Notes under the pieces: model-generated | Told to the model about the DNA's origin: nothing | The model's database searches: none | The model's input: only the letters and a program-made list of their open reading frames with translations | Position numbers and translations under genes: made by a program | Part shown: one piece after another, positions 3,146 through 16,709 of the stretch | Layout: every line of letters starts with the position of its first letter | Position numbering within the stretch: the first letter of the stretch is position 1 | From: a virus | Length of the DNA stretch: 16,913 nt | Direction: 5' to 3' (one strand) | Virus genome (UHGV): UHGV-1580312

Positions 3146-3746
3146 TTCGTTGTTACCACCATCAGCCAGCAATTTCATGCGTTGTGCCGAAGCCGTCGGA
3201 ACACGCATTACAGACATTCCGGTAGACCTCAACACGCTGTGGTCGCCGGACACCTGCCCGGTGCATCTGCTGCCTTATCTCGCCTGGGCGTTTTCCGTTG
3301 ACCGCTGGGATCGCAACTGGCCGGAAGAGACAAAGCGACAGGTGATTCGTGATGCATGGCTGATACACCGACACAAAGGGACCATCAGCGCACTGCGAAG
3401 AGCCGTGGAGCCTCTCGGCTACCTGATTGAAGTAAAGGAGTGGTGGCAACTCAACGAGGAGCCGGGAACATTTCGCATTGTTGTCGGAGTACTTGATCAG
3501 GGCATCACCGATGAAATGCATCAGGAACTTGAGCGCCTTATTGCGGATGCAAAACCAGTAAGTCGCCATCTGACGGGGCTGGCGATCAGCCTGAGTGTGA
3601 ACGGAAAGATTTTCGTTGGTACGGGATGCTATCACGGCGATGCCCTGACGGTTTATCCCTACACCCCGGAGTCCATTATTGTCGAAGGGGACTATTTCCC
3701 TGCCCCGGCCATTCATTTAATTGATAATCTGAGAGTAAACGCATGA
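3138..3746 (+). CDS. I: Baseplate/tail protein, P2 gpI-like
   Basis: ATG at 3138 preceded by GAAGGTGGA and overlapping the J stop (ATGAGTAA). The ORF-track start at 3105 lies inside J and is less likely. The stop overlaps the H start (ATGA). Confidence 0.8.
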   Translation: MSNSLLPPSASNFMRCAEAVGTRITDIPVDLNTLWSPDTCPVHLLPYLAWAFSVDRWDRNWPEETKRQVIRDAWLIHRHKGTISALRRAVEPLGYLIEVKEWWQLNEEPGTFRIVVGVLDQGITDEMHQELERLIADAKPVSRHLTGLAISLSVNGKIFVGTGCYHGDALTVYPYTPESIIVEGDYFPAPAIHLIDNLRVNA

Positions 3747-5308
3747 CAGTGAAATACTACGCTATTCTGACTAATCAGGGCGCGGCACGACTGGCTAACG
3801 CGACGATGCTCGGCAGTAAACTGAATCTGACGCAAATGGCCGTTGGTGATGCAAATGGTGTGTTACCAACACCAGACCCTGCACAAACAAAACTGATTAA
3901 CCAGAAACGCATTGCACCGCTGAATCTTCTGAGTGTTGACCCTAACAATCAGAGCCAGATTATTGCGGAGCAAATCATCCCTGAAAACGAGGGAGGATTC
4001 TGGATCCGTGAGATTGGTCTTTATGATGATGAAGGTGCACTCATTGCGGTGGCAAACTGCCCGGAAACGTACAAACCGCAGTTGCAGGAAGGCAGTGGAC
4101 GCACCCAGACTATCCGCATGATTCTGGTTGTCACGAACACCGAAGCCATCACGCTGAAAATCGACCCGTCTGTGGTTCTGGCAACCCGCAAATATGTGGA
4201 TGATAAAATATCAGAGCACGAACAATCACGACGTCACCCGGACGCCTCGCTGACCGTAAAAGGTTTTACTCAGTTAAGCAGTGCAATTAACAGTGAATCA
4301 GAAACACTGGCCGCAACACCGAAAGCGGTTAAGGCTGCATATGACCTGGCTAACGGGAAATATACCGCCCAGAACGCCACCACTACACAAAAAGGGATTG
4401 TTCAGCTCAGTAGCGCCACGAACAGCACGTCTGAAACGCTGGCAGCGACACCAAAAGCTGTTAAGGCGGTAATGGATGAAACGAACAAGAAAGCACCATT
4501 AAACAGCCCGGCACTGACCGGAACGCCAACAACACCAACAGCGCCACAGGGGGCTAATAGTACCCAGATCGCAAGCACGGCTTTCGTTATGGCCGCGATT
4601 GCCGCACTTGTAGATTCGTCACCTGATGCACTGAACACGCTGAACGAACTGGCTGCGGCGCTGGGCAATGACCCGAATTTTGCGACCACCATGACTAACG
4701 CGCTTGCGGGTAAGCAACCGAAGAATGCCACCCTGACGGCGCTGGCGAAGCTTGCTACATCAGCAGATAAACTCCCATATTTTACAGGGGCAGATCGTGC
4801 CGCGTTAACCGCGTTGACAAGTGTTGGACGTGCCATTCTTGGTAAAACCAGCACTCAGGGAGTTCTTGATTACCTTGGTTTGGGGGAAGGTTCTGCGCTG
4901 CCTGTTGGTGTGCCCGTTCCGTGGCCCTCAGCAACACCACCAACGGGCTGGCTGAAATGTAACGGCGCAGCATTTTCTTCTGAAATGTATCCCGGACTGG
5001 CAAAGGCTTACCCCACCAATAAATTACCGGATTTACGGGGTGAATTTATCCGTGGCTGGGATGATGGGCGCGGGATTGATGCGGGACGTACCCTGCTTTC
5101 AGGGCAGGATGGTACAAGTTTTTCTCATTACGGAGGTAATTTCGACATTGGGTCTGGTCATTCAATCAATAACTATGACCAAATTGTTTCTAACCAACCA
5201 AGCTTTTCCCGTTTTTCATTTGCAGGACCTTCACGAGGTGATGGGGTCAATTATGTAACCATTCGTCCTCGTAATATTGCGTTTAATTACATCGTAAGGG
5301 CAGCATGA
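3743..5308 (+). CDS. H: Tail fibre protein, P2 gpH-like; constant N-terminal/shaft region fused to variable C-terminal cassette V1 (from about 4877)
   Basis: 521 aa. N-terminal and central regions (tandem ...QLSSATNSTSETLAATPKAVKA... repeats, ...ALTALTSVGRAILGK...LDYLGL) look like P2 H / Mu S constant regions. The reading frame passes through crossover site s1 into a ~140-aa tip domain with the PDLRGEFIRGWDDGRG collar-like motif, ending ...RPRNIAFNYIVRAA*. Confidence 0.85.
   Translation: MTVKYYAILTNQGAARLANATMLGSKLNLTQMAVGDANGVLPTPDPAQTKLINQKRIAPLNLLSVDPNNQSQIIAEQIIPENEGGFWIREIGLYDDEGALIAVANCPETYKPQLQEGSGRTQTIRMILVVTNTEAITLKIDPSVVLATRKYVDDKISEHEQSRRHPDASLTVKGFTQLSSAINSESETLAATPKAVKAAYDLANGKYTAQNATTTQKGIVQLSSATNSTSETLAATPKAVKAVMDETNKKAPLNSPALTGTPTTPTAPQGANSTQIASTAFVMAAIAALVDSSPDALNTLNELAAALGNDPNFATTMTNALAGKQPKNATLTALAKLATSADKLPYFTGADRAALTALTSVGRAILGKTSTQGVLDYLGLGEGSALPVGVPVPWPSATPPTGWLKCNGAAFSSEMYPGLAKAYPTNKLPDLRGEFIRGWDDGRGIDAGRTLLSGQDGTSFSHYGGNFDIGSGHSINNYDQIVSNQPSFSRFSFAGPSRGDGVNYVTIRPRNIAFNYIVRAA
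4863..4888 (+). other. Serine-invertase crossover site s1 (hix/gix-like, 12-2-12)
   Basis: TTCTTGATTACC-TT-GGTTTGGGGGAA. The left half matches the classical hixL left half (TTCTTGAAAACC) at 10 of 12 positions. It lies exactly at the constant/variable boundary of H (codons L-G-L-G). Confidence 0.7.
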
Positions 5309-5327
5309 AAACGTTGGTTTGGGGGAA
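5302..5327 (+). other. Serine-invertase crossover site s2
   Basis: AGCATGAAAACG-TT-GGTTTGGGGGAA. The right half and central TT are identical to s1. The TGA stop of H/V1 (5306-5308) lies inside the left half-site. Confidence 0.65.
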
Positions 5328-5852
5328 GGCTCTGCACTGCCCGTTGGTGTACCTGTTCCGTGGCCCTCAGCCACTCCACCAACGGGCTGGCTGAAATGCA
5401 ACGGCGCAGCATTTTCTCCTGAAGATTACCCCAAACTGGCACAGGCTTACCCCGCGAACAAATTACCGGATCTACGGGGTGAATTTATCCGTGGCTGGGA
5501 TGATGGACGTGGCTTGGATGCTGGGCGTGCCTTGCTAAGTCTTCAGGATGACTCTTTTGAAGCGCACAGGCATGAGTCCTTTTTTTATGCGGGTATTTCA
5601 CGTAATGAGATCCCATTAAAAAATCTTCCAAGTTCAGACGAGATGCTGACTTTAAGTTCCACAACTAATGCCTTGTCCCCGGACGATATTGATGCCACCA
5701 ACTCGTTAATTGGTAATGACGATTACAACTGTCTTATCGAAGGGAATAAAAATAACAAACGAACAGCGACAGGACTGAGTACCAGTATTGTCGGCACAGC
5801 AGAAACACGCCCCCGCAACGTTGCATTCAATTACATCGTAAGAGCCGCATGA
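5316..5852 (+). other. Silent alternative tail-fibre C-terminal cassette V2 (no start codon or promoter of its own)
   Basis: The frame opens at the crossover site with GEGSALPVGVPVPWPSATPPTGWLKCNGAAF...PDLRGEFIRGWDDGRG, about 90% nucleotide identity to the V1 5' block by eye, then a divergent core, then the conserved ...RPRNVAFNYIVRAA* end. The only start available is TTG with no SD. Confidence 0.75.
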
Positions 5853-5871
5853 AAACGTTGGTTTGGGGGAA
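5846..5871 (+). other. Serine-invertase crossover site s3
   Basis: CGCATGAAAACG-TT-GGTTTGGGGGAA. The V2 stop TGA (5850-5852) is embedded in the left half-site. Confidence 0.65.
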
Positions 5872-6339
5872 GGCTCTGCACTGCCCGTTGGTGTGCCTGT
5901 TCCATGGCCCTTAGCAACACCACCAACGGGCTGGCTGAAATGTAACGGTGCAGCATTTTCTTCTGAAATGTACCCCAAACTGGCAAAAGCCTACCCCACT
6001 AATAAATTACCGGATTTACGCGGAGAATTTATCCGTGGCTGGGATGATGGGCGAGGAATTGATGCGGCACGCGCTTTATTGAGCATTCAAAACGGGATGT
6101 TGGAAAAACACCGCCATATTGTTGTAGCTAACGATGGATATGACACAAAAGATGAATGGGAGTTGGCTACGATTTTCAAAAAAACATATACACAAGGCAG
6201 GGGGCTTGATGCCACAAATACAGGAGGGAGTTTGATTCCATCACCAACGCTTCATTCACGAGGAAGTATTGGTAACACAGGTGGTAGTGAAACCCGCCCC
6301 CGCAATATTGCATTTAACTATATCGTGAGGGCGGCTTAG
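5860..6339 (+). other. Silent alternative tail-fibre C-terminal cassette V3
   Basis: Same conserved 5' block (GEGSALPVGVPVPWP...) and 3' end (...RPRNIAFNYIVRAA*) as V1/V2 with a different central core. No ATG or SD. Confidence 0.75.
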
Positions 6340-6345
6340 TTATAT

Positions 6346-6957
6346 TCAACTGGCTGCTGCCAGTGGTATTTCCGGCAAGTTGATATCTGGTACCATGTTT
6401 ATATCCATTGCGTTCAGCGCGTCTATATAATCCAGCACGGCATTAAGCCGGGTGGTTTCTGCCTGCGTCAACTTCCGCCCGGCCTGCAACTTCAACTGAA
6501 TCAGACTTATGGAAGCCATTGCCGCATCAGCCAGTGACTGGCGCTTGGTTTCTGCCGCTTCTACTGCGGCACGATGTTGTGCCTCAGTATCTGTCACCCA
6601 TTTTTCACCATCCCATTTATCGTATGGTGTTAACGGGGCGATAGTGGTTGTAGTTTTCGGGTAGTCACCCAGCGCCGTGATTTCTTCGGTGTTTCCCGTG
6701 TCAGTGCTATAGACGGTTTCACCACGATGGTCTGGCGCATACTCCCATGAACTTAAATTCTCCGAACGGCGGATAGCATAGCCCGCTTTATGTGCGCCCG
6801 GGGCATCTAAACAGGAATTTGCCGGAATACCGACACCCACAGCAAGATATTCAGTTGATTCGGAAATATATTCCCGTGTCTCACCATCATAGTTATAAAC
6901 GACGATGTTTCCTGCCTGTACGGCAATAAGGTCATCATTTAATATCGCGTTATTCAT
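6346..6957 (-). CDS. Tail fibre assembly chaperone (Tfa / P2 gpG / Mu U-like)
   Basis: 203 aa. The C-terminal half (...KWDGEKWVTDTEAQHRAAVEAAETKRQSLADAA...) has the character of Tfa-family chaperones. Its ATG overlaps the V4 stop (TAATG), so it is translationally coupled to V4 and co-oriented only with V4. Confidence 0.75.
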   Translation of the reverse strand: MNNAILNDDLIAVQAGNIVVYNYDGETREYISESTEYLAVGVGIPANSCLDAPGAHKAGYAIRRSENLSSWEYAPDHRGETVYSTDTGNTEEITALGDYPKTTTTIAPLTPYDKWDGEKWVTDTEAQHRAAVEAAETKRQSLADAAMASISLIQLKLQAGRKLTQAETTRLNAVLDYIDALNAMDINMVPDINLPEIPLAAAS

Positions 6958-7418
6958 TATGCGGTTCTCACAATATAATTGAAGGCAATATTGCGTGGGC
7001 GGTTTTCATTCCCATCTGAGGATTCCGTTCTGTATTGACTGGTAAATCTACCGTTAATTGCACCTTGCCGGACGGCGTTATCTGTCGACAACAGACTATC
7101 CCCTCTTTTGTCATTTGGCACCAGTACCGTGTTATCCCACGCATCCCATGACCGAATATTATGATAATGACTTCCTGTTAACCACCCCTGCATGCTTAAG
7201 ATGCCCCTTCCGGCATCCACCCCGCGCCCATCATCCCAGCCACGGATAAACTCACCGCGTAAATCAGGTAATTTTAACGTTGGGTAAACCTTTGCCAGAT
7301 TTGGGTACATTTCAGAAGAAAATGCTGCACCGTTACATTTCAGCCAGCCCGTTGGTGGTGTGGCTGAGGGCCATGGAACAGGCACACCAACGGGCAGTGC
7401 AGAGCCTTCCCCCAAACC
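6957..7418 (-). other. Silent alternative tail-fibre C-terminal cassette V4, inverted orientation
   Basis: The minus-strand frame gives ...NENVGLGEGSALPVGVPVPWPSATPPTGWLKCNGAAF...PDLRGEFIRGWDDGRG...RPRNIAFNYIVRTA*. The only upstream start is TTG with no SD. Confidence 0.75.
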
Positions 7419-7432
7419 AACGTTTTCGTTTT
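7407..7432 (-). other. Serine-invertase crossover site s4 (inverted relative to s1-s3)
   Basis: The minus strand reads AAAACGAAAACG-TT-GGTTTGGGGGAA, the same core as s2/s3. It lies 55 bp upstream of the invertase start on the opposite strand. Confidence 0.65.
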
Positions 7433-7486
7433 TATCCCTACCTATACCAACTATGTATTTTTCACGAAACAAAGAGGATGTTTTTT

Positions 7487-8086
7487 ATGCAAATTGGCTA
7501 TGTTCGTGTGTCAACAAATGACCAGAACACGGATTTACAACGCAATGCACTGAACTGCGCAGGATGTGAACTGATTTTTGAAGATAAAATCAGCGGAACG
7601 AAATCAGCCAGACCGGGATTGAAAAAACTGCTCAGAACGCTATCAGAAGGAGATACGCTGGTTGTCTGGAAGCTGGACAGACTGGGCAGAAGTATGAAAC
7701 ACCTGATCACGCTTATTGAGGAATTGCGGGAAAAAGGTGTTAATTTCCGTAGTCTGACGGACAGCATTGACACATCAACACCCATGGGGCGTTTCTTTTT
7801 TCACGTCATGGGGGCTTTAGCCGAAATGGAACGTGAATTAATTGTAGAGCGTACACTGGCCGGGCTGGCAGCAGCACGCGCACAAGGACGCATTGGCGGA
7901 CGTCGCCCGAAGTTGACAAAAGAACAACACGAGCAAATAGCGAGGCTGATTAAAAACGGTCATGACAGGAAACAACTGGCGATCATTTACGACATCGGCA
8001 TATCGACGATTTATCGTTATCACCCTGTAGGCGATATACAGGCTGAAGAAACAACCAGGCAGACTCAGGAAAATGAAAACCGCTAA
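7487..8086 (+). CDS. Site-specific serine DNA invertase (Hin/Gin/Cin/Pin/Min family)
   Basis: ATG at 7487 preceded by AAAGAGGA. The N-terminus MQIGYVRVSTNDQNTDLQ carries the catalytic Ser motif; ...GDTLVVWKLDRLGRSMKHL...FRSLTDSIDTS...MGALAEMERELI...GRIGGRRPKL and a C-terminal HTH are near-identical in pattern to Gin/Hin. The in-frame 5' extension to 7280 in the ORF track is antisense to cassette V4 and not credible as coding. Confidence 0.9.
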   Translation: MQIGYVRVSTNDQNTDLQRNALNCAGCELIFEDKISGTKSARPGLKKLLRTLSEGDTLVVWKLDRLGRSMKHLITLIEELREKGVNFRSLTDSIDTSTPMGRFFFHVMGALAEMERELIVERTLAGLAAARAQGRIGGRRPKLTKEQHEQIARLIKNGHDRKQLAIIYDIGISTIYRYHPVGDIQAEETTRQTQENENR

Positions 8087-8105
8087 TCTGACCATTAGCG
8101 GTTTT
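8076..8105. terminator. Bidirectional hairpin terminator shared by the convergent invertase and gpU genes
   Basis: Perfect 12-bp inverted repeat AAAACCGCTAAT-ctgacc-ATTAGCGGTTTT, with an A-run on one side and a T-run on the other. The invertase stop TAA (8084-8086) lies in the left arm. Confidence 0.5.
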
Positions 8106-8112
8106 GCGTTAA

Positions 8113-8607
8113 TCAAAACAGCCCTTTAACGGAGCTGGCCGCGCTGTTAAGGGATGATGTGACCTTATCTTTGAAGCCGGACAGCATATCACTGAACGAT
8201 GAGGATTGCAGGCGCTCCCGCAAATCCTCATCACAGCGTTCAAGAGTCAGTGAAAACTCTATCTTTTTCGCCTTACCGTAGCGATCAAACTCGGAGCGGG
8301 TCGTATTCGTTCCGGTCAGGACATACATGCCGTAAATCTGCCCGACACCATCAATCAGAGGCCAGGGGCGTCCTGTATATGCCTGCGTGGTCAGCAACGA
8401 AAGCGACACTTCGCCACCTGTAATTTCAGGATAAAGCACACCAGAAAGAACGATGCGATCATCGCCTGCCCCGATATACTGCCAGCTTGCTGAACGGTTA
8501 ACGCGTTCATTTTTCACATGCCGCCAGCTTTTGTTTTGCTGTAACTGCTGATGCGGCAACGTACGCAGCTCAAAAACAAACATGCCGTAGATCATCATCA
8601 TGGCCAT
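8113..8607 (-). CDS. U: Tail protein, P2 gpU-like
   Basis: 164 aa; the N-terminus M(A)MMMIYGMFVFELRTLP... and ...VLYPEITGG... resemble gpU. It follows the tape measure gene as in P2 (T then U). The true start may be one of the internal Met codons. Confidence 0.8.
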   Translation of the reverse strand: MAMMMIYGMFVFELRTLPHQQLQQNKSWRHVKNERVNRSASWQYIGAGDDRIVLSGVLYPEITGGEVSLSLLTTQAYTGRPWPLIDGVGQIYGMYVLTGTNTTRSEFDRYGKAKKIEFSLTLERCDEDLRERLQSSSFSDMLSGFKDKVTSSLNSAASSVKGLF

Positions 8608-8613
8608 GACTCC

Positions 8614-11457
8614 TCAATCTTTATCGTAAAAACTGCCACGCCCGGCACGGGCGCGCCGTTCCATTTCTGCCCTGACCATTTCACCGACCAGTTTCGCCAG
8701 TTCGCGGGGATTCTGCGTAACAACGTTATGCAGATGAACATGAATTTCACCACCAAATCCGGAGGCAACAGGCTCCCGGTTACGGGAAGTTACAGGAACT
8801 GATGCCACTGGAGATCGTATGGCCTCCGCCACCGGGCGGGAGCTGGCCGCAACAACAGGGACCAGCGCCGGAGGCAGCGGAGCCGGGACCACGGGGGTGA
8901 TATTCATTGCGGGGGCAGGCTTACTGACCTGTGCAATCTTCCGCTCCTGCCACTCCCCACGAACAGCAAGTGCGCGGGGCAGGTTCTTAAAGACAATATC
9001 GCCGGGGCCAATACGTTTTTTTGTCTCATCAACCAGCTTACCTGTGTTATCAGCAATTTTGCTGAGTCTGCGTAGCGTGCCGGTATTGCTGTCTGTGAGC
9101 GGTTTGTTGTCTTTGGGTTTATCGCCTCCGGTGCCATTGCCATTTTCCGCAGACTTCGGCGGATTGATTTTCGCAATGTCTCCCTGAAACAGAGCAACCT
9201 TGTCCTGAAGAATGGCCGCACGCTGTGCGTCTTCGATTTTCTTTCTCGCCCTTTCCGCTTCATCCGGAAGCACACCGAGTTTTTCAAGTATCCACGCCAG
9301 CGTATCCAGCAACATTTTTGCAGGCGTCAGAACAAGCTGTAGCGCGCCACCAAGAGCGTTACCGAATATCTCGCCAGCACTGGTACATTTATCCAGCGTT
9401 TCCTTGCTGGACTCCATCGGTGACAGCAGCGATTTAAACCAGTTAAACACCTGGCTGATCCCGCTTCCGATTGCGTCAAAAACAGGACCAAACCGTTCAA
9501 AGGTTTCACGCAACGGGTTCAGCCTTTCCATAATCCCGCTGAACACCCCGGCAAAAAATGCCCTGATGGGATCCCAGTATTTCCAGATAAGAACGGCAGC
9601 TCCGGCAAGCGCAGCCACGATAAGACCAACCGGACTGAACAGCGCCCCGATAGCGCCTCCCAGCAAAGAAACGGAACCCGTCACCATTCCCCACAGCGCA
9701 GGCAACACCCTGACGACATTCATTGACCGGGTAAGAATGTCAAAACCAAGACGCAGGGTGGCCAGCTTCCCGTAAAGCACCCCAATAACCAGTGACAACG
9801 AGCCAATCGTTGCAGTCATTGCCAGCAACGCACCGCCTGCTATCAGTAGCTGGCGCGTCAGTACCGGATGGGCCTGCGCCAGCGAGGTGATTTTTTCAAG
9901 CACCCGCGTGAGCCACTGCGTGACAGAACGCAGCGGACCGTCAACCAGATCACTGATGCGAATACGAAGACCTTCCCATGCGCTGTCGAGATTTTTCAGG
10001 TCCCCATCAAGATTATCGGCCATTACTTTTGCAACGCGATCGGCCTCTCCCCTTGCCCCCTGCAATTCTCTGGTCAGTTTTTGCAGCTCTCCTGAACCAG
10101 CCGCCGCAACAAGCGTCTGCAAACCAACGAACGCCTCTTCTCCGGCGATGTCCTTGAAGAAGGAGACCTGGTCCACCTGTCCGTATTTTTGTGTCGCCTT
10201 ATAGAGATCAAGCAGCACATCCTCCATCGGGCGCATTTTGCCTCTGGCGTCAGCAACTGACACCCCCAGCTCTTTCAGTGCATCAGCCGCAGCTTTTGGC
10301 GGTGATGCAAGGCGGGACAGACTTGCGCGCATGGCCGTGCCAGCATCGCTTCCGCGAAGACCATTATTGGCAAGCATCCCAGCCATAGCCGCCGCTTCTT
10401 CAAGACTGATACCAAGTTTTGCGGCAACCGGACCGGTATACTTCATGGTTTCGCCCAGCGCGCGTAAATCAGTATTGGTCCGGGTGAATGCCGCTGTCAG
10501 CGTATCGCCAACCCGGTCCATTTGATCGGCTGTCAGGTTGAACTGTGTGAGGATATTGGAGCCTATATCCGCCGTCTCGCCGAGTTCGACGCCACCTGCC
10601 AGCGCCATATTAAGAACACCGGGCAATGCGGCCTGAATGGCCTGCGGAGTAAAACCAGCCATTGCCAGAAAGCTCTGCCCACTGGCGGCATCACTCGCAG
10701 TAAACTGTGTTTCAGAGCCAAGTTTTAACGCCTGCTCACGCAGCGCCTTAAACTGCGGGCTGTTTTTGTCGATTCGCGTCAGTGCCTGAACGCGGGACAT
10801 CTCTTTGCCGAACCCGATCGCAGGCTGCAAAAAACGCCCGGCAGCATAGCCGCCCGCCGCTGCCGCACCAATTGCCAGCGCACCACCTGTTTTCAGTTTT
10901 CCCGCGGTTTCCTGCGCGCGCGAATACCGCTCACGCGCCCGCGTTACACGCGCAAGCGCCTGCCGTTCGCGTTCAAGCTGGTTGTTGTACTGTTCGGTGC
11001 GTCTGATGGCCTGCTGGATGGTGTTATCGCTGCCTGTCAGGGAAATGCCGTGGCGTTTCAGCTCTCCGCCAAGCTCCCGCATTTTCTGAATTTCCCGTGT
11101 GCGCGATTCATTCAGGCGTTCAAGCCGGGTGCTTAACTGCTGCATCAGCTTTTGTTGTTTTTCGCTGAGCACTGTACCCGTGCGTTGTAACTGATTAAGG
11201 GCGTTAAGCTGGCGTCGTGCTTTCACGATACCCGCATCCGCTTTACTGACAGCGTCGCGGGCGCGCTCAAATGATCGCGCCTGACGCTCGAGATTTTTGA
11301 TCGCCCCCTGCGTTCGCTGGATGGAGTCACCAAACTGCCCCATCAGGCGGCGGGCGTTTTCGGCAGGCCGGGTCAGCCTGTCAACGGCGCTGAAAGCGAC
11401 CCGGATATCAAGAGTCTTCATTGTCTGCATTCCCGCTGCGAAGTGCCGCCCGCTCAC
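8614..11457 (-). CDS. T: Tail tape measure protein, P2 gpT-like
   Basis: 947 aa with a coiled-coil-rich N-terminal half (many Q/R/E/L/A heptads), hydrophobic central segments and a Gly/Ala-rich region. Position between E' and U. The listed start is GTG at 11457; ATG alternatives are at 11430 and 11421. The 5' end overlaps the end of E'. Confidence 0.85.
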   Translation of the reverse strand: MSGRHFAAGMQTMKTLDIRVAFSAVDRLTRPAENARRLMGQFGDSIQRTQGAIKNLERQARSFERARDAVSKADAGIVKARRQLNALNQLQRTGTVLSEKQQKLMQQLSTRLERLNESRTREIQKMRELGGELKRHGISLTGSDNTIQQAIRRTEQYNNQLERERQALARVTRARERYSRAQETAGKLKTGGALAIGAAAAGGYAAGRFLQPAIGFGKEMSRVQALTRIDKNSPQFKALREQALKLGSETQFTASDAASGQSFLAMAGFTPQAIQAALPGVLNMALAGGVELGETADIGSNILTQFNLTADQMDRVGDTLTAAFTRTNTDLRALGETMKYTGPVAAKLGISLEEAAAMAGMLANNGLRGSDAGTAMRASLSRLASPPKAAADALKELGVSVADARGKMRPMEDVLLDLYKATQKYGQVDQVSFFKDIAGEEAFVGLQTLVAAAGSGELQKLTRELQGARGEADRVAKVMADNLDGDLKNLDSAWEGLRIRISDLVDGPLRSVTQWLTRVLEKITSLAQAHPVLTRQLLIAGGALLAMTATIGSLSLVIGVLYGKLATLRLGFDILTRSMNVVRVLPALWGMVTGSVSLLGGAIGALFSPVGLIVAALAGAAVLIWKYWDPIRAFFAGVFSGIMERLNPLRETFERFGPVFDAIGSGISQVFNWFKSLLSPMESSKETLDKCTSAGEIFGNALGGALQLVLTPAKMLLDTLAWILEKLGVLPDEAERARKKIEDAQRAAILQDKVALFQGDIAKINPPKSAENGNGTGGDKPKDNKPLTDSNTGTLRRLSKIADNTGKLVDETKKRIGPGDIVFKNLPRALAVRGEWQERKIAQVSKPAPAMNITPVVPAPLPPALVPVVAASSRPVAEAIRSPVASVPVTSRNREPVASGFGGEIHVHLHNVVTQNPRELAKLVGEMVRAEMERRARAGRGSFYDKD

Positions 11458-11937
11458 GCCAGCTAACCACTTCGCCGGGCGTCATCATGAAGATTTCGGC
11501 GGGCGACCAGTTAAAAATGGCGGCAATATCCGCCACAAAGTCTTCTATGTGCTCAAAGCACACAACCGTGATCAGGCTTCCGTCGCCTGTTCGCTCTTCC
11601 CGCCAGAGTCCGCACCGCTCAAAAAATTTACGGCAACCACACATAACTGAATAAAATCACGGGATGCCATTTTTTTGATCGTCACTTCATCCAGTCGTGG
11701 CGAGGTCACGCGTGACAGCAGCGTAAACATGGATTCCGCTTTCAGATTCAGCACATCAGACAGCGACAAATCTCGCAGAGATCCAGCCTGCTCAATAGCC
11801 CCGGTGATCTCCACATACGTGATTTTTTCGCCGCCTCGCTCAATTGGTTGGGTAAGTTTTACGCCACGCTCACTGGTTTCTTTCACAGTGTCAGTAACTA
11901 CCGTGTTTTCGGTATCGATGTTTTTCGTCTCTTTCAT
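11408..11937 (-). CDS. gpE+E' fusion made by programmed -1 ribosomal frameshift (E' extension ends at 11408)
   Basis: The -1 frame relative to E is open from the slippery site to the stop at 11408 (...FFERCGLWREERTGDG...). Slipping at T-TTT-TTG changes ...VNFLSG to ...VNFFERCG. The E' end overlaps the T start, as in P2. Confidence 0.65.
11572..11937 (-). CDS. E: Tail assembly chaperone, P2 gpE-like (frame 0 product)
   Basis: 121 aa; ATG at 11937 preceded by AAGGAG. It contains the TTTTTTG slippery heptamer near its 3' end and sits between the tube and tape measure genes. Confidence 0.75.
   Translation of the reverse strand: MKETKNIDTENTVVTDTVKETSERGVKLTQPIERGGEKITYVEITGAIEQAGSLRDLSLSDVLNLKAESMFTLLSRVTSPRLDEVTIKKMASRDFIQLCVVAVNFLSGADSGGKSEQATEA
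11620..11626 (-). other. -1 programmed frameshift slippery heptamer T TTT TTG (E/E')
   Basis: Read directly from the sequence: minus strand ...GTA AAT TTT TTG AGC... This is the same heptamer used by P2 E/E' and is analogous to lambda G/GT. Confidence 0.65.
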
Positions 11938-11991
11938 CAGGAAACTCCTTTCAGTCAGAGGCGACGCACTGCGCCGCCTGCATATTACTTA

Positions 11992-12504
11992 TCAGCCAAG
12001 CCCGAGCGCGGAACGGATGCGATCGGGCACAATGTCCTTGCCGTCCTTCCGGTAGATGTGGTTCAACAGGTCGATTTCCCACAGCGGGCGATCGTTAACG
12101 CTCAGCTTGTAGTAGGTGTTTTTGACAGCGTAAGTGTGTGATGTGGCTTCGCCCTGTTTGGCCTCCCCCATATCAATTTCCGTCACACGCCCGCGCATCT
12201 CGATTTCATACAGATCGCTTTCTGCATCGGTGTAGTATTCACCCGCAAAACGCAGCAGCGTGCCGTCAATCGTGCCGCCATATTTAAGGAACAGCGCACG
12301 AACAGCTCCCCCCATGACAAAGCTCGCATCAAGCGCGGAGTCGTCCAGACCGAGATCAATACTTACCGCCCCCATCATGCCACCACCCCGGTAGCTGTCG
12401 GTTTTGCGCGTCAGCTTAGGCAGAGTGACGGACGTCACCTTACCCACTTCGTTTTCACCATCCACAAACAGCGTAAAAAAGCGAAGATGTTTTGGTACAG
12501 CCAT
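11992..12504 (-). CDS. FII: Tail tube protein, P2 gpFII-like
   Basis: 170 aa; ATG preceded by GGGAGG. The start overlaps the sheath gene stop (TGATG). Size and position are typical of gpFII. Confidence 0.85.
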   Translation of the reverse strand: MAVPKHLRFFTLFVDGENEVGKVTSVTLPKLTRKTDSYRGGGMMGAVSIDLGLDDSALDASFVMGGAVRALFLKYGGTIDGTLLRFAGEYYTDAESDLYEIEMRGRVTEIDMGEAKQGEATSHTYAVKNTYYKLSVNDRPLWEIDLLNHIYRKDGKDIVPDRIRSALGLG

Positions 12505-13688
12505 CAGGCACCTCCCAGCACCGCAAATGCGGGACCAAAGAATTCATCAGTAAACGTCTGGTAAAGCTCCATGTCTTCCAGTGGCGGAACGGGCGTATAT
12601 TTGTAGCGAATACGCACACGTCCCTGACGTAAATCCGTGGTGCCGTTATCCACCACGTCATACCAGCACTCCGCGCCAATCAGTTTCCCGGCAGTAACCA
12701 GCGAATCCAGTTTTGCCCTGATGGCACTGATAACATCCTTCACGTTCGCAGGCGTCAGTGGACTGTCGATGGTTTCAAACTGCGCTTCCGCAATTGAATC
12801 AGCCAGCACCTGTGCGGTTCGGGTATACACCTCAAAGATGTAGGCGTTCGTTTCCGGTGTGCGGTTGCCCCAGAAGCGGAACCCGTTGCGACGAATAATG
12901 GTCGTGATTTCTTTGTTGTTGAGGCTGTTGGCATCGCTGTCTTCGGCCTGCAACGACCAGAACACATGCCTGGACATCCCCAGCACATTTTTAACCGGAA
13001 CGTTGGACAGTGATTTGTGCCATCCCTGCTCATGGTCAATGTACGCACGAAGGCCGCACGCATAGGCAGGCGCGGGGAACGTTTCGTTTTTGCCACTTTT
13101 CGGGTTGTAGGCGATGAAGTCCGGCCATAAGAGCATCACCTCACGTTCGTTGAATTTCTGGCGGTAGGTAATCACCTCAGCCATCGTGTTACAGCCGTGA
13201 CATGAGGCATACACAAACGCGCGCAGTTTACCCGCAATCACGCACAGGGATTTTGTCACCGCCTCCGTGTCCAGCTCCGGCGCGGCCAGAATACGCGGAC
13301 GGTATCCGATGCTTTCATCCTGCTCTGCAACAAGCAGCGCATACATCCCCGTATAGCTGCCGTCAGATTCAGAACCACCGATAACCAGTTGATCCTGCGT
13401 CTTTCCGTCTTCTTCTTTGTGTTCAGCCACGCGAACGACGATCACCTTTGTGCTCACCTGGTCTGCGATGGCCTTAAGCGCACGATAAAGCGTCCCCGTT
13501 GTCCCGCATTTTCCCAGCACGTCATTGACGCGGGTCAGCAGTGTGGGCTTGTTCAGCGGGAACAGCTTCGCGTCCGCATCATCCGCCGTTGCCACGATAC
13601 CGATAACGCTGGAATCAACATCGTTAATCGCTGTTACCAGGTCGGTATTTTCCGTAACACGGGCACCATGAAAACGAGTTTCACTCAT
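12504..13688 (-). CDS. FI: Contractile tail sheath protein, P2 gpFI-like
   Basis: 394 aa; multiple blocks (...FPLNKP...LKAIADQ...PRILAAPELDT...KLRAF...WPDF...DHEQGWHKSLSNV...RRNGFRFWGNRT...YTRTAQV...YKYTPVPPLE...) match the sheath family pattern. Confidence 0.9.
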   Translation of the reverse strand: MSETRFHGARVTENTDLVTAINDVDSSVIGIVATADDADAKLFPLNKPTLLTRVNDVLGKCGTTGTLYRALKAIADQVSTKVIVVRVAEHKEEDGKTQDQLVIGGSESDGSYTGMYALLVAEQDESIGYRPRILAAPELDTEAVTKSLCVIAGKLRAFVYASCHGCNTMAEVITYRQKFNEREVMLLWPDFIAYNPKSGKNETFPAPAYACGLRAYIDHEQGWHKSLSNVPVKNVLGMSRHVFWSLQAEDSDANSLNNKEITTIIRRNGFRFWGNRTPETNAYIFEVYTRTAQVLADSIAEAQFETIDSPLTPANVKDVISAIRAKLDSLVTAGKLIGAECWYDVVDNGTTDLRQGRVRIRYKYTPVPPLEDMELYQTFTDEFFGPAFAVLGGA

Positions 13689-13845
13689 AGCTTTAGCCCC
13701 TTGTATCCGTTAAATGATTCGGCAACAATCATCACCCACCACGCGCGTAATCTCACCCCTGTGCCGTTCTCCCGATCCGGCGACAACAAAAAGCAGTAAC
13801 CCCCTCCGCACGCACATGCGACCATGCCGCACAGGGAGGGAACAG

Positions 13846-14955
13846 ATGACCGATACCACCATGCAATTGCTCAGTCAGGGCACAGACCCCGTGAAAATGC
13901 CGGATTTTGATATTCTCGCGGAGGGTAAAACGCTGTCAGGCGTGGCAGAGCGCCTGATGAGCCTGTCACTGACCGACAACCGGGGATTTGACGCGGACCA
14001 GCTCACCATCACGCTGGATGATGCGGATGGTCAGTTGCAGCTACCGCCACGGGGCGCGCGCCTGACGGTTCTCATTGGCTGGAAAGGAGAACCGCTGACA
14101 GAAAAAGGCACTTACATTGTTGATGAAATCGCTCACGAAGGACCGCCGGACAGGCTGACTGTTTCAGCCAGAAGCGCAGATTTTCGGGATGAATTTAACG
14201 TTAAACGTGAGGTGTCCTGGCATGATGTGACCGTTGAGCGTGTGGTATCCGCCATCGCTCATCGGTATGGTCTGAAACCGCAAATCAGCGAAATGCTGAT
14301 GGATATCGAAATCGACCACGCCGACCAGACCGAAGAAAGCGATATGTCCTTCCTTACGCGCATGGCGGAAATGCTGGGCGCAATCACCACGGTAAAAAGC
14401 GGCAATCTGTTATTCATCATGCCAGGTGGTGGCGTGAACGCACAGGGCCAGCCGTTGCCATCGTTCGCCATCACACGCAGCAGCGGCGATCGCCATCAGT
14501 TCCGCATTGCTGACCGCGAGGCGTATACGGGGGTACGCGCTTACTGGCTTGATCTTAATTACGGGAAAAAGAAAAAAGTCAGCGTGAAACGCCGCAAACC
14601 GCCAAAACCCAAAAAGGAGAAAAGCAGCAGCCGTGAAGGTGATTATATGGAAGGCGCGGAAGGCAATGTGTTTGTGTTACGCAAGACTTATCAGAACGAG
14701 CAGGCAGCAAGACGCGCAGCGGCGGCAAAGTGGCAGCAGCTACAACGCGGAGCCGCATCATTTTCCATCACGCTGGCGCGTGGACGTGCAGAACTCTACC
14801 CCGAAATGCATGGCACGGTAACAGGATTTAAAAGCGAGATTGATAATCAGGACTGGATTATTGCAAAAGCCGAGCACACCATTGATAACAGCGGCTTTAC
14901 CACGCAGCTTGAGCTTGAGGCAAAAATCCCGGAATGGATAGCAGAAACAGCGTGA
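13846..14955 (+). CDS. D: Tail/baseplate hub protein, P2 gpD-like (late control D family)
   Basis: ATG at 13846 preceded by GGGAGGG. Motifs ...SLSLTDNRGFDADQLTITLDDADGQ...ARSADFR...SWHD...ESDMSFLTR...ITRSSGDRHQF...YTGV...EGDYMEGAEGNVF...KWQQLQRGAASFSITLARGRA...SGFTTQLELE fit gpD-family proteins. The ORF-track start at 13714 is less likely. Confidence 0.8.
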   Translation: MTDTTMQLLSQGTDPVKMPDFDILAEGKTLSGVAERLMSLSLTDNRGFDADQLTITLDDADGQLQLPPRGARLTVLIGWKGEPLTEKGTYIVDEIAHEGPPDRLTVSARSADFRDEFNVKREVSWHDVTVERVVSAIAHRYGLKPQISEMLMDIEIDHADQTEESDMSFLTRMAEMLGAITTVKSGNLLFIMPGGGVNAQGQPLPSFAITRSSGDRHQFRIADREAYTGVRAYWLDLNYGKKKKVSVKRRKPPKPKKEKSSSREGDYMEGAEGNVFVLRKTYQNEQAARRAAAAKWQQLQRGAASFSITLARGRAELYPEMHGTVTGFKSEIDNQDWIIAKAEHTIDNSGFTTQLELEAKIPEWIAETA

Positions 14956-15046: not shown

Positions 15047-16216
15047 CTAATATTGAGAAAGATAATCAGCGACTCCATCTGCAGGGTTTCGCCCACCAGT
15101 ATAAATTGTGCCTAATTCTTGAGGTGTAACATATGTTGTAGGCCAAATGGCCATATTTTTAAAATAGTTATCTATTTTTATTCTTTGAAGTTCTTTAAAG
15201 AGATAATCTTCTAAGTCATTTCTTTTTAGACAGTTAACATAATAAGCAGCCGCACTTGCTACTATATCTACAATTTGTAATTGAGGATACTCTTGTGATG
15301 AATGGAATGTCAAAGAACGAGCTTTAATTGGCAATTCAAATTTTCTTCGATCATAACCATATGCCTCCGTAATTTTTGATATATCCATAAATTTATCAAA
15401 AATATCTTTCTTCTCTGTAATAGCTTTGGAATCGTCATGCTTAATATAAAAACCATTAGGGTATAATTTACCCCATTCTACACAGTGTCTAAAGAGGCTT
15501 GGTATAGATGGATCTAATGTGCTTTTCTCAACACCTTCCAATATATCATCAATATCGCTTCTGGTAATACTAATTCTGTTTATTATATCTGTGAATATCT
15601 TATCACTTGAGCATATCTTTAACTCATCAATTACCCTGTAAAATTCATCAATTGACTCAGTCGATTGGCTTCTGATCATATTCATAAAACACTGATACAT
15701 TACCTCTGTTTTTTCCTCCCCACAGAAAGCAGGGAAACAGAAATAGTAAACATTAGACAGAGCTAGATTCTGTCCATTTATATAAAGATCTATTCCTCTA
15801 TTAGAGCACCACGTCTCGATCAAAATATCAACAATCTTTGCTGTTAGCATGTATTTTTTATCGACCAAGTATATTTTAACATTCTCTTCATTGACATATT
15901 TGCTTTCAAGAAGCCTAATGATGCCATCCTGACCAGATTTTCTACGTCTAAGAGTTTTAAAGTGGGCTTCTGTTGGAGATTTGCTTCCGGTTAGTTCTAA
16001 TGCCTTAAGCGCATCCTGTTTACTAATACTACTTGAACTTAAGGTAAAAACAGGTTGCAATGGATCGAGTAAATTTCCGCCAGTATTACCTGATTCATCA
16101 AAAAATATATCAGGCTTTATATACAACATTTTATTTATCTTTGCCGCTAAGTTTCTTTTTTTCTCATTTTCTCGCTTAATTTTATTATCTCGCCTACGTT
16201 GACTATTCTTTCCCAT
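15047..16216 (-). CDS. AT-rich cargo ORF of unknown function; possible DE-motif (DUF3800-like?) protein
   Basis: 389 aa; ATG preceded by GAGGT; own hairpin terminator. GC is roughly 25-30% against roughly 55-65% in the flanking phage genes. It has a basic N-terminal 29 aa followed by MLYIKPDIFFDESG and later QIVDIVASAAAY. The family assignment is from memory only and unverified. Confidence 0.7.
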   Translation of the reverse strand: MGKNSQRRRDNKIKRENEKKRNLAAKINKMLYIKPDIFFDESGNTGGNLLDPLQPVFTLSSSSISKQDALKALELTGSKSPTEAHFKTLRRRKSGQDGIIRLLESKYVNEENVKIYLVDKKYMLTAKIVDILIETWCSNRGIDLYINGQNLALSNVYYFCFPAFCGEEKTEVMYQCFMNMIRSQSTESIDEFYRVIDELKICSSDKIFTDIINRISITRSDIDDILEGVEKSTLDPSIPSLFRHCVEWGKLYPNGFYIKHDDSKAITEKKDIFDKFMDISKITEAYGYDRRKFELPIKARSLTFHSSQEYPQLQIVDIVASAAAYYVNCLKRNDLEDYLFKELQRIKIDNYFKNMAIWPTTYVTPQELGTIYTGGRNPADGVADYLSQY

Positions 16217-16448: not shown

Positions 16449-16709
16449 ATGTTCCGTTGTCCGCTTTGTGGCGCATCTGCCCGTATCCGCACAAGTCGTC
16501 CGGAAAATGATTCAAACACCGTGCGGCAAAAGTATTACCAGTGTAACAACCTGGAATGCGGCGTATGCTTCTCAACACTGGAAGCCTTCCATAAATTCAC
16601 ATCAAAACACGCCTCCGCCGTTCACTCTTCAGAAGGTATCCCGTGGCATGAGCTGCCAGCTTCACACAGGGGAAACAATCAGATGAGTTTGCCTTTACCT
16701 CAGAACTAA
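16449..16709 (+). CDS. ogr: Ogr/Delta-family zinc-finger late transcription activator
   Basis: 86 aa; GGGAGG SD. MFRCPLCGASARIRTSR...YYQCNNLECGVCF gives the C-x2-C...C-x4-C zinc-finger arrangement and N-terminal pattern of P2 Ogr. Position after gpD at the prophage right end. Confidence 0.85.
   Translation: MFRCPLCGASARIRTSRPENDSNTVRQKYYQCNNLECGVCFSTLEAFHKFTSKHASAVHSSEGIPWHELPASHRGNNQMSLPLPQN

Follow-up and report, generated by a model that had tools for sequence, protein, structure and literature searches.

Results

The window, by which we mean the whole stretch of 16,913 nucleotides that was analyzed, contains four alternative tail-fibre tip cassettes, V1 to V4, at the positions given in a preliminary description of this DNA. 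V1 (4883-5305, + strand) is fused to gene H, and the open reading frame of H including this fusion extends from 3743 to 5308 (+). The constant part of the gene (3743-4862, +) encodes a P2 gpH-like N-terminal domain and fibre repeats (PF12571, 210 bits; PF03406, 141 bits). The remaining cassettes are silent, with V2 (5322-5852, coding 5322-5849) and V3 (5866-6339, coding 5866-6336) on the + strand and V4 (6957-7412, coding 6960-7412) on the - strand. A tail fibre assembly (chaperone) gene, tfa (6346-6957, -), was identified by a PF02413 (Caudo_TAP) match of 107 bits against a cut-off of 22.1. Its start overlaps the V4 stop codon (TAATG). A Mu-like prophage encodes, after a V3-type tip, a Tfa to which this one is 77% identical. 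Of the cassettes only V4 is followed by tfa, and no chaperone gene comes after V1, V2 or V3. A small serine DNA invertase of the Gin/Pin/Cin/Hin family is encoded at 7487-8086 (+). It has an N-terminal resolvase domain and a C-terminal HTH (PF00239, 174 bits; PF02796, 48 bits), and over 191 amino acids it shares 73% identity with Gin of Mu.

Crossover site 1 (TTCTTGATTACC TT GGTTTGGGGGAA; 4863-4888, +) marks the junction between the constant part of H and V1, and is followed by site 2 (AGCATGAAAACG TT GGTTTGGGGGAA; 5302-5327, +), site 3 (CGCATGAAAACG TT GGTTTGGGGGAA; 5846-5871, +) and site 4 (AAAACGAAAACG TT GGTTTGGGGGAA; 7407-7432, -), which alone is oriented opposite to sites 1-3. All four 26-bp dyad sites carry an exact right half-site, where 0.01 matches would be expected by chance, and the sites align with gixL and gixR of Mu at the annotated boundaries of the G segment. 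Judged from sequence, the cassettes belong to a Gin-type shufflon of a P2-like E. coli prophage. The limits of the feature as first described match the right half-sites of crossover sites 1 (4889) and 4 (7418). In V1 and V2 the stop codon is part of the left half-site of the crossover site that comes next, which for V1 is site 2.

Natural isomers of this arrangement exist. When joined in silico, H::V2 and H::V3 give open, in-frame read-through, and uninterrupted H::V3 and H::V4-tfa junctions exist in other E. coli genomes, the latter among others in a second assembly of E2348/69. The predicted inversion is precisely what distinguishes the two E2348/69 assemblies. For a P2-like prophage shufflon of EPEC E2348/69, inversion was demonstrated experimentally (Goldberg et al. 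2014, PMC4272514). It was described as having three inverted repeats, with four variants that coexist and three C termini as alternatives.

Each cassette is composed of an N block of 75 amino acids (GEGSALP...LSxQ), a variable core, and a C block of 14 amino acids (RPRN(I/V)AFNYIVR(A/T)A). In V1 these occupy 4883-5107, 5108-5263 and, including the stop codon, 5264-5308 (all +; C block RPRNIAFNYIVRAA). The corresponding parts are 5322-5546, 5547-5807 and 5808-5849 in V2, with the stop codon at 5850-5852 (+), and 6091-6294 (core) flanked by 5866-6090 and 6295-6336 in V3, with the stop codon at 6337-6339 (+). In V4 the order is reversed on the - strand, with the N block at 7188-7412, the core at 7002-7187, the C block at 6960-7001 and the stop codon at 6957-6959. 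Pairwise identity among the N blocks is 85-93%, and the C blocks are identical at 12-14 of 14 positions, with Ile replaced by Val in V2 and Ala by Thr in V4. The cores comprise 52 (V1), 87 (V2), 68 (V3) and 62 (V4) residues and have no detectable similarity to each other, as their local alignment scores are at the level of shuffled sequence (z = -1.6 to +0.4). These block measurements bear out the conserved-variable-conserved mosaic of four cassettes proposed in the preliminary description, as well as the dissimilarity of the cores. The core length of 60-90 residues given there should read 52-87, and the claim that the C block is identical in all four cassettes does not hold.

The Phage Tail Collar profile (PF07484), a search that had been proposed together with the mosaic, matched all four cassettes (V1 51.7, V2 52.9, V3 55.7 and V4 53.7 bits) against a curated gathering cut-off of 24 bits. 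In both the T4 gp37 tip and gp12, the two blocks have their counterparts in the N-terminal and C-terminal portions, with E-values of 5e-30 and 3e-9 when a profile was used, and the V1 N block is homologous to gp37 from residue 811. In gp37 the collar domain D10 consists of residues 811-881 and 1010-1026, with D11 inserted between them (PMC6957217), and the block boundaries of the cassettes agree with those of D10 to ∼5 residues. By homology, the N and C blocks are the two halves of one discontinuous Phage Tail Collar domain, and the conserved-variable-conserved pattern would be a consequence of this discontinuous topology. AF2 monomer prediction modelled both collar parts with confidence and the core with low confidence (pLDDT 46-58).

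It could alternatively be hypothesized that the flanks are conserved at the DNA level, to provide the invertase, or RecA-mediated gene conversion and cassette exchange, with homologous sequence. The N blocks do form repeats of 215-241 nt that are 85-88% complementary between the + strand cassettes and V4. The N block is also present in Mu-like and P1-like elements and might thus serve the horizontal exchange of tips as a recombination linker, and the two stop codons located within crossover half-sites would fit the same hypothesis. However, Gin-family recombination requires the 26-bp site alone, and nearly the whole N block is located downstream of this site. Conservation of both blocks extends to gp37 and gp12 of T4, proteins without an inversion system. 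Moreover, dS in the N block is high (0.39-0.66), and in the C block 6-10 of ∼10 synonymous sites differ versus 0-2 non-synonymous changes, so that synonymous sites are saturated while the protein is almost unchanged, which argues against recent homogenization. The dN/dS ratio of the N block is 0.10-0.27 overall and 0.14-0.27 between V1 and the other N blocks. We consider conservation at the DNA level unlikely, and as the main cause it is largely refuted by the dN/dS pattern; the flanks appear constant because selection acts on the protein fold rather than because of recombinase requirements.

The C block had been suggested to be a trimerization or processing element. The first part holds only insofar as the collar itself is trimeric. 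As for the second, a terminal, short and highly conserved block might be a processing element or an intramolecular chaperone that is removed after trimerization, as in fibres with a C-terminal S74 peptidase, and cleaved C-terminal chaperone domains do exist in some fibre classes (PMC12143355). Yet the Pfam HMM search returned no match to a protease-type, peptidase or chaperone domain in the cassettes, and 14 residues are too short for one. Furthermore, the gp37 C terminus NIAFNYIVRLA aligns with NIAFNYIVRAA of the cassettes, and the V1 C block also aligns with RPWNISLNYIIK of gp12. The homologous residues end the solved chains of gp37 (2XGF, ...NYIVRLA) and gp12, and in gp37 they are assigned to collar domain D10 (PMC6957217). 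AF2 likewise models the C block as a confident strand. Removal of the C block after trimerization is highly improbable in our view, and homology identifies the block as the closing strand of the collar and no processing signal.

The motifs at the start of the cores were all found as previously stated, i.e. HRH in V2 (EAHRHE, 5565-5573, +), HRH in V3 (EKHRHI, 6109-6117, +), HYH in V4 (GSHYHN, 7161-7169, -), and SHYGG in V1 (5123-5137, +). The two His of V2, V3 and V4 occupy the same offsets, 33 and 35 from the P of PDLRG. At these offsets V1 has H-Y-G, with His at 33 and Gly at 35, and hence the first His only. The collar family comprises 17,564 clusters at 50% identity (E <= 0.001). Among 114 representative relatives clustered at 50% identity, His is present at offset 33 in 56 and at offset 35 in 54, at a background His frequency of 1.7%, and the motif is beyond chance. 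The residue between the two His has 12 different identities in these relatives, and most of the remainder have I-x-G at offsets 33/35. Since about half of the relatives lack H-x-H, the collar scaffold does not require the motif.

Loss of the motif in related cassettes had been named as grounds for abandoning a metal site. We found H-x-H retained in V3-type and V4-type relatives with core identity down to ∼46-53%, and HRH retained in a relative of V2 (P0121). Both His are invariant in the alignment of the HxH class (A2, 34 sequences), while flanking residues vary freely. One relative (P0240) combines this collar with nine HxH motifs, the first of them at the matching offset. The H-x-H of V2-V4 aligns with His883/His885 of T4 gp37, both by MAFFT and with a profile of HxH-class cassettes, and with His445/His447 of T4 gp12 using the same profile. 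In gp12 these residues are the ligands of an octahedral zinc site on the three-fold axis (PMC3004832), and the gp37 tip has seven HxH motifs for seven iron ions (PMC6957217, PMC12609058). By homology, we infer that H-x-H in V2-V4 binds metal, with the His side chains placed relative to the trimer axis as in these homologues. The reading of the motif as a fibre metal site is thus supported by alignment to known ligands, but it is not general to such tips.

A receptor-contact motif, a catalytic motif or a functionless lineage marker are other possible explanations for H-x-H, and both its absence from so many related tips and the low confidence of the AF2 model in the motif region could be taken in their favor. 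However, the motif lies at the base of the insert next to the collar, whereas gp37 contacts receptors with its distal tip, a long way from there (PMC6957217). In two homologues of solved structure, the very columns to which it aligns hold metal ligands that were defined by experiment (PMC3004832). In addition, two invariant His with free middle and flanking residues form the pattern expected of ligands. We find it quite unlikely that H-x-H is anything other than a structural metal site. V1 represents a different case. Its relatives display HYG (P0127), HYA (P0140) and QRA (L007), so that the lone His is unconserved in its own class. With H-Y-G in V1 and Q-R-A in a V1-type relative, the V1 tip is probably without a metal site.

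The preliminary description also cited HTHKH of gpV beside the cassette motif. This sequence is present in the gpV spike tip (1839-1853, +; PF18946 GpV Apex motif, PF18715, PF04717), but it belongs to a different fold, the Pfam Apex motif, and is unrelated to the motif of the cassettes. It is a separate, analogous iron site outside the cassette system.

Discussion

Our results strongly favor the hypothesis that V1-V4 are alternative receptor-binding tips of gpH on one trimeric Phage Tail Collar scaffold, metal-clamped in V2-V4, and exchanged by Gin-type inversion; we regard it as very probable. According to this hypothesis the chain would build the first ∼75 residues of the collar, exit into a receptor-binding excursion of 52-87 residues, and come back as the last strand of 14 residues. 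In V2-V4 the excursion would open with H-x-H, the counterpart of the collar-proximal iron HxH of gp37 and of the zinc-binding His445/His447 of gp12. Each of three chains would contribute two His, and the resulting six would coordinate a single octahedral metal ion on the three-fold axis and so clamp the base of the insert, and the I-x-G of many relatives could form a hydrophobic plug. Each core may have its own receptor specificity. A Gin-type invertase would swap the tips by inversion between the 26-bp sites directly 5' of each collar block. Because of this position, each swap would join the constant shaft in frame to a complete collar-plus-insert module. The cassette boundaries may thereby be explained structurally, insofar that a recombination site directly upstream of a self-contained module would let any tip be attached to the shaft with the fold left intact.

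A more far-reaching hypothesis, and one we judge to be fairly unlikely, is that the axial position of the collar is two-state, i.e. either an H-x-H metal clamp or an I-x-G hydrophobic plug, with V1-type H-Y-G/Q-R-A as a further state. Single shufflons would routinely combine them, a given prophage would then switch between tips that depend on a metal and tips that do not, and the one-metal inserts of 52-87 residues would be minimal receptor-binding folds without a solved structure. If the assembly or stability of the fibre were in turn tied to the supply of iron or zinc, phase variation would alter assembly requirements together with host range.

From the collar hypothesis it is predicted that the V2, V3 and V4 tips require metal and that the V1 tip does not. 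For engineering of chimeric fibres in P2-type phages or tailocins, it suggests swapping at the collar while retaining the C-terminal strand of 14 residues. The design itself is already understood, its principles being known for T4 gp12 (2003), T4 gp37 (2010) and the shufflon (since 2014), and the gain is incremental.

The closest structural comparisons are found in T4. The gp37 tip (residues 811-1026, PDB 2XGF) shares the C-terminal strand of the cassettes, its first HxH (His883/885) is spaced from the GRxxLS anchor as in V2-V4, and a Tfa-like chaperone, T4 gp38, takes part in its assembly (PMC6957217), just as the cassette locus has tfa. Only the collar blocks and the first HxH of the cassettes align to gp37, however. 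The gp37 insert is a needle of 128 residues that binds Fe through seven HxH motifs and also includes a head subdomain, whereas the cassettes have 52-87 residues with one HxH (V2-V4) or none (V1), and a long six-stranded needle with about six or seven HxH iron sites and a distal head was found in none of V1-V4. Since the cores are far shorter and have one HxH versus seven, the insert need not fold as in gp37. T4 also differs from the cassette locus in that it does not switch tips by inversion. The receptor-binding region of gp12 (PDB 1OCY, 5LYE, 5IV5) consists of a collar and an inserted domain, from which the chain comes back as a C-terminal strand (GNETRPWNISLNYIIK versus ETRPRNIAFNYIVR). With a single HxH (His445/447) and one metal on the three-fold axis, it is a closer analogy to V2-V4 than gp37. 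On the other hand, gp12 has ∼30 extra residues between collar and HxH, a larger "knitted" head and low sequence identity to the cassettes; the gp12 head family PF14928 scored below its cut-off of 23.8 in V2 (17.4 bits) and gave no match in V1, V3 or V4.

At the level of the locus, the shufflon of EPEC E2348/69 is ∼96% identical to the window and contains H::V1, a V3-type cassette, tfa, V4 and the invertase. Its layout matches the published shufflon (PMC4272514), a study in which domain architecture and the HxH motif were outside the analysis. The window has one extra cassette, V2, and hence four sites.

In the G segment of Mu (Gin) and the C segment of P1 (Cin), inversion exchanges the 3' end of a tail-fibre gene, as it would here. 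Each alternative tip of Mu has its own chaperone gene (S-U, S'-U'), whereas the window has a single tfa that accompanies V4 alone. Phage Mu itself gave no collar-type match; a collar-type fibre of 256 amino acids is present in a Mu-like E. coli prophage (L009). The multi-site arrangement is analogous to the Min multiple-inversion system of p15B.

Results

The tips are exchanged by Gin-type inversion. The window represents a P2-like prophage's tail module, carrying genes V, W, J, I and H, the cassette region and an invertase gene, followed by U, T, E, FII, FI, D and ogr. Gene H (3743-5308, + strand) encodes the P2 gpH N-terminal domain and fibre repeats, and its 3' end is cassette V1. V2 (5319-5852) and V3 (5863-6339), both promoterless, come next in the orientation of H, the tail fibre assembly gene tfa (6346-6957) and cassette V4 (6957-7412) lie on the opposite (-) strand, and the serine invertase gene (7487-8086, +) encodes a protein 73% identical to Mu Gin. 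None of H, tfa and the invertase received a specific name from NCBIfam. From H to the invertase (3743-8086) the region is 95-98% identical to E. coli chromosomes; NZ_OY754453.1 covers it in full and a derivative of EPEC E2348/69 to 93%.

Three crossover sites on the + strand (4863-4888, 5302-5327 and 5846-5871) and one on the - strand (7407-7432) share the exact right half-site GGTTTGGGGGAA, for which 0.01 chance matches are expected, and all four align with the Mu gix sites at the annotated G-segment boundaries. The stops of V1 and V2 (GCA TGA) fall inside the left half-site of the next site (5302-5327 and 5846-5871), so that each + strand cassette abuts the following site with no spacer. In-silico exchange joined the constant part of H to V2 and to V3 in frame, and contiguous H::V4-tfa and H::V3 junctions are present in other E. 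coli genomes. The H::V3 fusion occurs at 100% identity in NZ_CP026723.1, where its layout (H::V3, then tfa, V4, V2 and V1 on the - strand) is that of the predicted two-step isomer. Moreover, two assemblies of E2348/69 differ by the predicted inversion of the whole segment; the contrast comes from CP059840.2, the NC_011601.1 and LT903847.1 copies being the same isomer.

The conserved-variable-conserved mosaic proposed in the preliminary description was confirmed by four-way alignment and by direct measurement of the blocks. Among the four cassettes the N-terminal block spans 75 residues with pairwise identities of 85-93%, and the variable cores of V1 to V4 comprise 52, 87, 68 and 62 residues, a range of 52-87 instead of the 60-90 first stated. 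Local alignments of core against core score about as shuffled sequence does (z from -1.6 to +0.4). The C-terminal block of 14 residues, previously called identical in all four, is conserved but only nearly identical (12-14 positions).

The flanks are the two halves of one collar domain. All four cassettes match Phage Tail Collar (PF07484) at more than twice the curated cut-off in the HMM search that had been proposed, and in searches against solved structures both blocks match two T4 fibre proteins, gp37 at the tip of the long fibre (2XGF) and gp12 of the short fibre; a profile search gave E-values of 5e-30 and 3e-9. Domain D10 of gp37 (residues 811-881 and 1010-1026) has the collar fold of gp12 and carries the receptor-binding domain D11 (882-1009) as an insertion (Islam et al., PMC6957217), and in the Bas63 paper (PMC12609058) the chain turns back to the collar in the same way; the block boundaries of the cassettes lie within about 5 residues of the D10/D11 boundaries. 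Consequently, the mosaic is one discontinuous domain with a variable insertion. The C-terminal block aligns with the extreme C terminus of gp37 (NIAFNYIVRLA) and with gp12 (ETRPWNISLNYIIK), and is the closing strand of the collar, not the processing element once suggested. The "collar domain" of the Ur-lambda paper denotes something else, namely the N-terminal ring of Stf, and has no bearing here.

Flanks this similar could also reflect recent gene conversion or a requirement of the recombinase. However, the 26-bp recombination sites occupy only the 5' edge of each N-terminal block, leaving its other ∼220 bp outside the site, and between cassettes these blocks show dS of 0.39-0.66 and dN/dS of 0.10-0.27. 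The C-terminal blocks differ from one another at 6-10 of about 10 synonymous sites but in just 0-2 amino acids. Low dN/dS, high synonymous divergence and the position of the sites together argue that selection at the protein level, rather than conversion or recombinase demand, holds the flanks.

The histidine motifs were found as described (V2 EAHRHE, V3 EKHRHI, V4 GSHYHN, V1 SHYGG, and HTHKH in gpV). MAFFT placed the H-x-H of V2-V4 on His883/His885 of gp37, the first of exactly seven HxH motifs in its tip, and the first histidine of V1 on His883. Seven iron ions are reported in the gp37 needle (PMC6957217, PMC12609058), a count equal to the number of motifs. A profile of 34 HxH-class cassettes reproduced the gp37 alignment and also placed the motif on His445/His447 of gp12, which coordinate zinc octahedrally on the three-fold axis (PMC3004832). 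The cassette motif was likewise aligned by MAFFT with the first of nine HxH in a 341-residue relative (P0240) that has the same collar blocks; its nine motifs occupy a 205-residue segment, the first at the V2-V4 offset. This protein is a gp37-like long needle on the present collar and links the one-HxH and many-HxH forms. The HTHKH of gpV belongs to another iron site, that at the apex of the spike (Pfam Apex motif); it parallels the cassette motif by analogy but is unrelated to it.

Since the first homologue search gave only near-identical V3-type proteins, conservation of the motif was judged from a 50%-clustered search of 1.84 billion representative proteins, which returned 17,564 relatives at E ≤ 0.001; 114 cassettes were extracted from the best 150 of these. 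Counted from the P of PDLRG, histidine stands at offset 33 in 56 and at offset 35 in 54 of the 114 (background 1.7%), the residue between them takes 12 identities, and the neighbouring columns are not rich in histidine. H-x-H is kept in V3-type cassettes down to 46% and in V4-type cassettes down to ∼53% core identity, contrary to what would be seen if the motif were not conserved among relatives. By these comparisons the motif is selectively conserved and shares homology with established metal ligands in the 114 cassettes' T4 counterparts, gp37 and gp12. The majority of those that lack H-x-H carry Ile at offset 33 together with Gly at offset 35 (QGDAIRNIxG), and I-x-G may be a hydrophobic substitute for the metal site. 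The best sequence match for V1 and V4, the phiTE short tail fibre (PDB 9CUY), is such a variant (QGDAIRNITG); it was ruled out as a structure for this class, only residues 3-92 being modelled (PMC11972413).

V1 itself has His33 and Gly35. Its class carries HYG or HYA, and a 79%-identical V1-type tip of strain DLI.5a has Q-R-A, so that the lone histidine is not under the same constraint. V1 is thus probably without an axial metal.

Related E. coli loci (L001-L011) hold three to five cassettes each, with HxH, HxG, IxG and other classes mixed. For one of them, L006 (strain 14EC047), the annotation gives a series of frameshifted pseudogenes, perhaps owing to errors in the assembly. Escherichia phage vB_EcoM-673R5 (ON470615.2, a 95-kb record) contains six matches to the V3 cassette at ∼64.7-65.9 kb (best 75% identity), suggesting a Min-like multi-cassette inversion region with the same collar-type tips.

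A single tfa gene accompanies the four cassettes. It adjoins V4 alone, overlaps it (TAATG) and is translationally coupled only to it. In a Mu-like E. coli prophage, a V3-type tip of 94% identity on a 256-residue fibre is followed by a Tfa of 77% identity (L009, 4771-5373), so that one chaperone type probably serves several tips with unrelated cores. Both here and in the H::V3 isomer, tfa and H are on opposite strands. Transcription of tfa in this orientation by read-through from the F operon, which runs in the other direction than in P2, was considered, but a terminator-like hairpin (8076-8105; AAAACCGCTAATGGTCAGATTAGCGGTTTT) separates gpU from the invertase and speaks against it. The hairpin has a 12-bp stem with A and T runs at its flanks, extends over the final invertase codons and the short intergenic stretch up to the stop of the convergent gpU gene, and looks bidirectional.

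The FI-FII-E-T-U tail block (8113-13688, -) is inverted with respect to canonical P2, in which FI to D are co-directional with V-W-J-I-H-G. Here gpU (PF06995) is on the - strand, and gpD (PF05954) and ogr remain on + (13714-14955 and 16449-16709). All E. coli relatives inspected likewise have U and T on the - strand, downstream of the invertase gene (gpU only in one). Inversion of this block by the same invertase was rejected, as neither flanking inverted repeats nor gix-like sites were found. Between gpD and ogr lies an AT-rich cargo gene (15047-16216, -; 33-36% GC against ∼55% for the phage) whose 389-residue product matches DUF3800 (PF12686, E 3.5e-10); a PADLOC search gave no defence-family match, and the gene is probably a moron.

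Discussion

According to our hypothesis, in V2-V4 six histidines from three chains would bind one ion at the base of the insert, V1 would bind no such ion, and the cores would set receptor specificity. We consider the overall account of the cassettes very probable and their architecture firmer still; actual metal binding, argued from homology, is likely, if a degree less so.

The H-x-H/I-x-G dimorphism and the one shared chaperone gene are minor points, for which a non-exhaustive literature search found no description. Earlier publications already cover the split collar into which a receptor-binding domain is inserted, the HxH metal sites, and this shufflon. By sequencing, Goldberg et al. (2014; PMC4272514) identified a P2-like prophage locus of EPEC E2348/69 as a shufflon: it has three inverted repeats, four variants coexist, and the C terminus comes in three alternative forms. 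This layout agrees with the E2348/69 homologue of the present locus. What the window contributes to these known systems is a member that has four cassettes and whose inserts are short and of the single-HxH kind.
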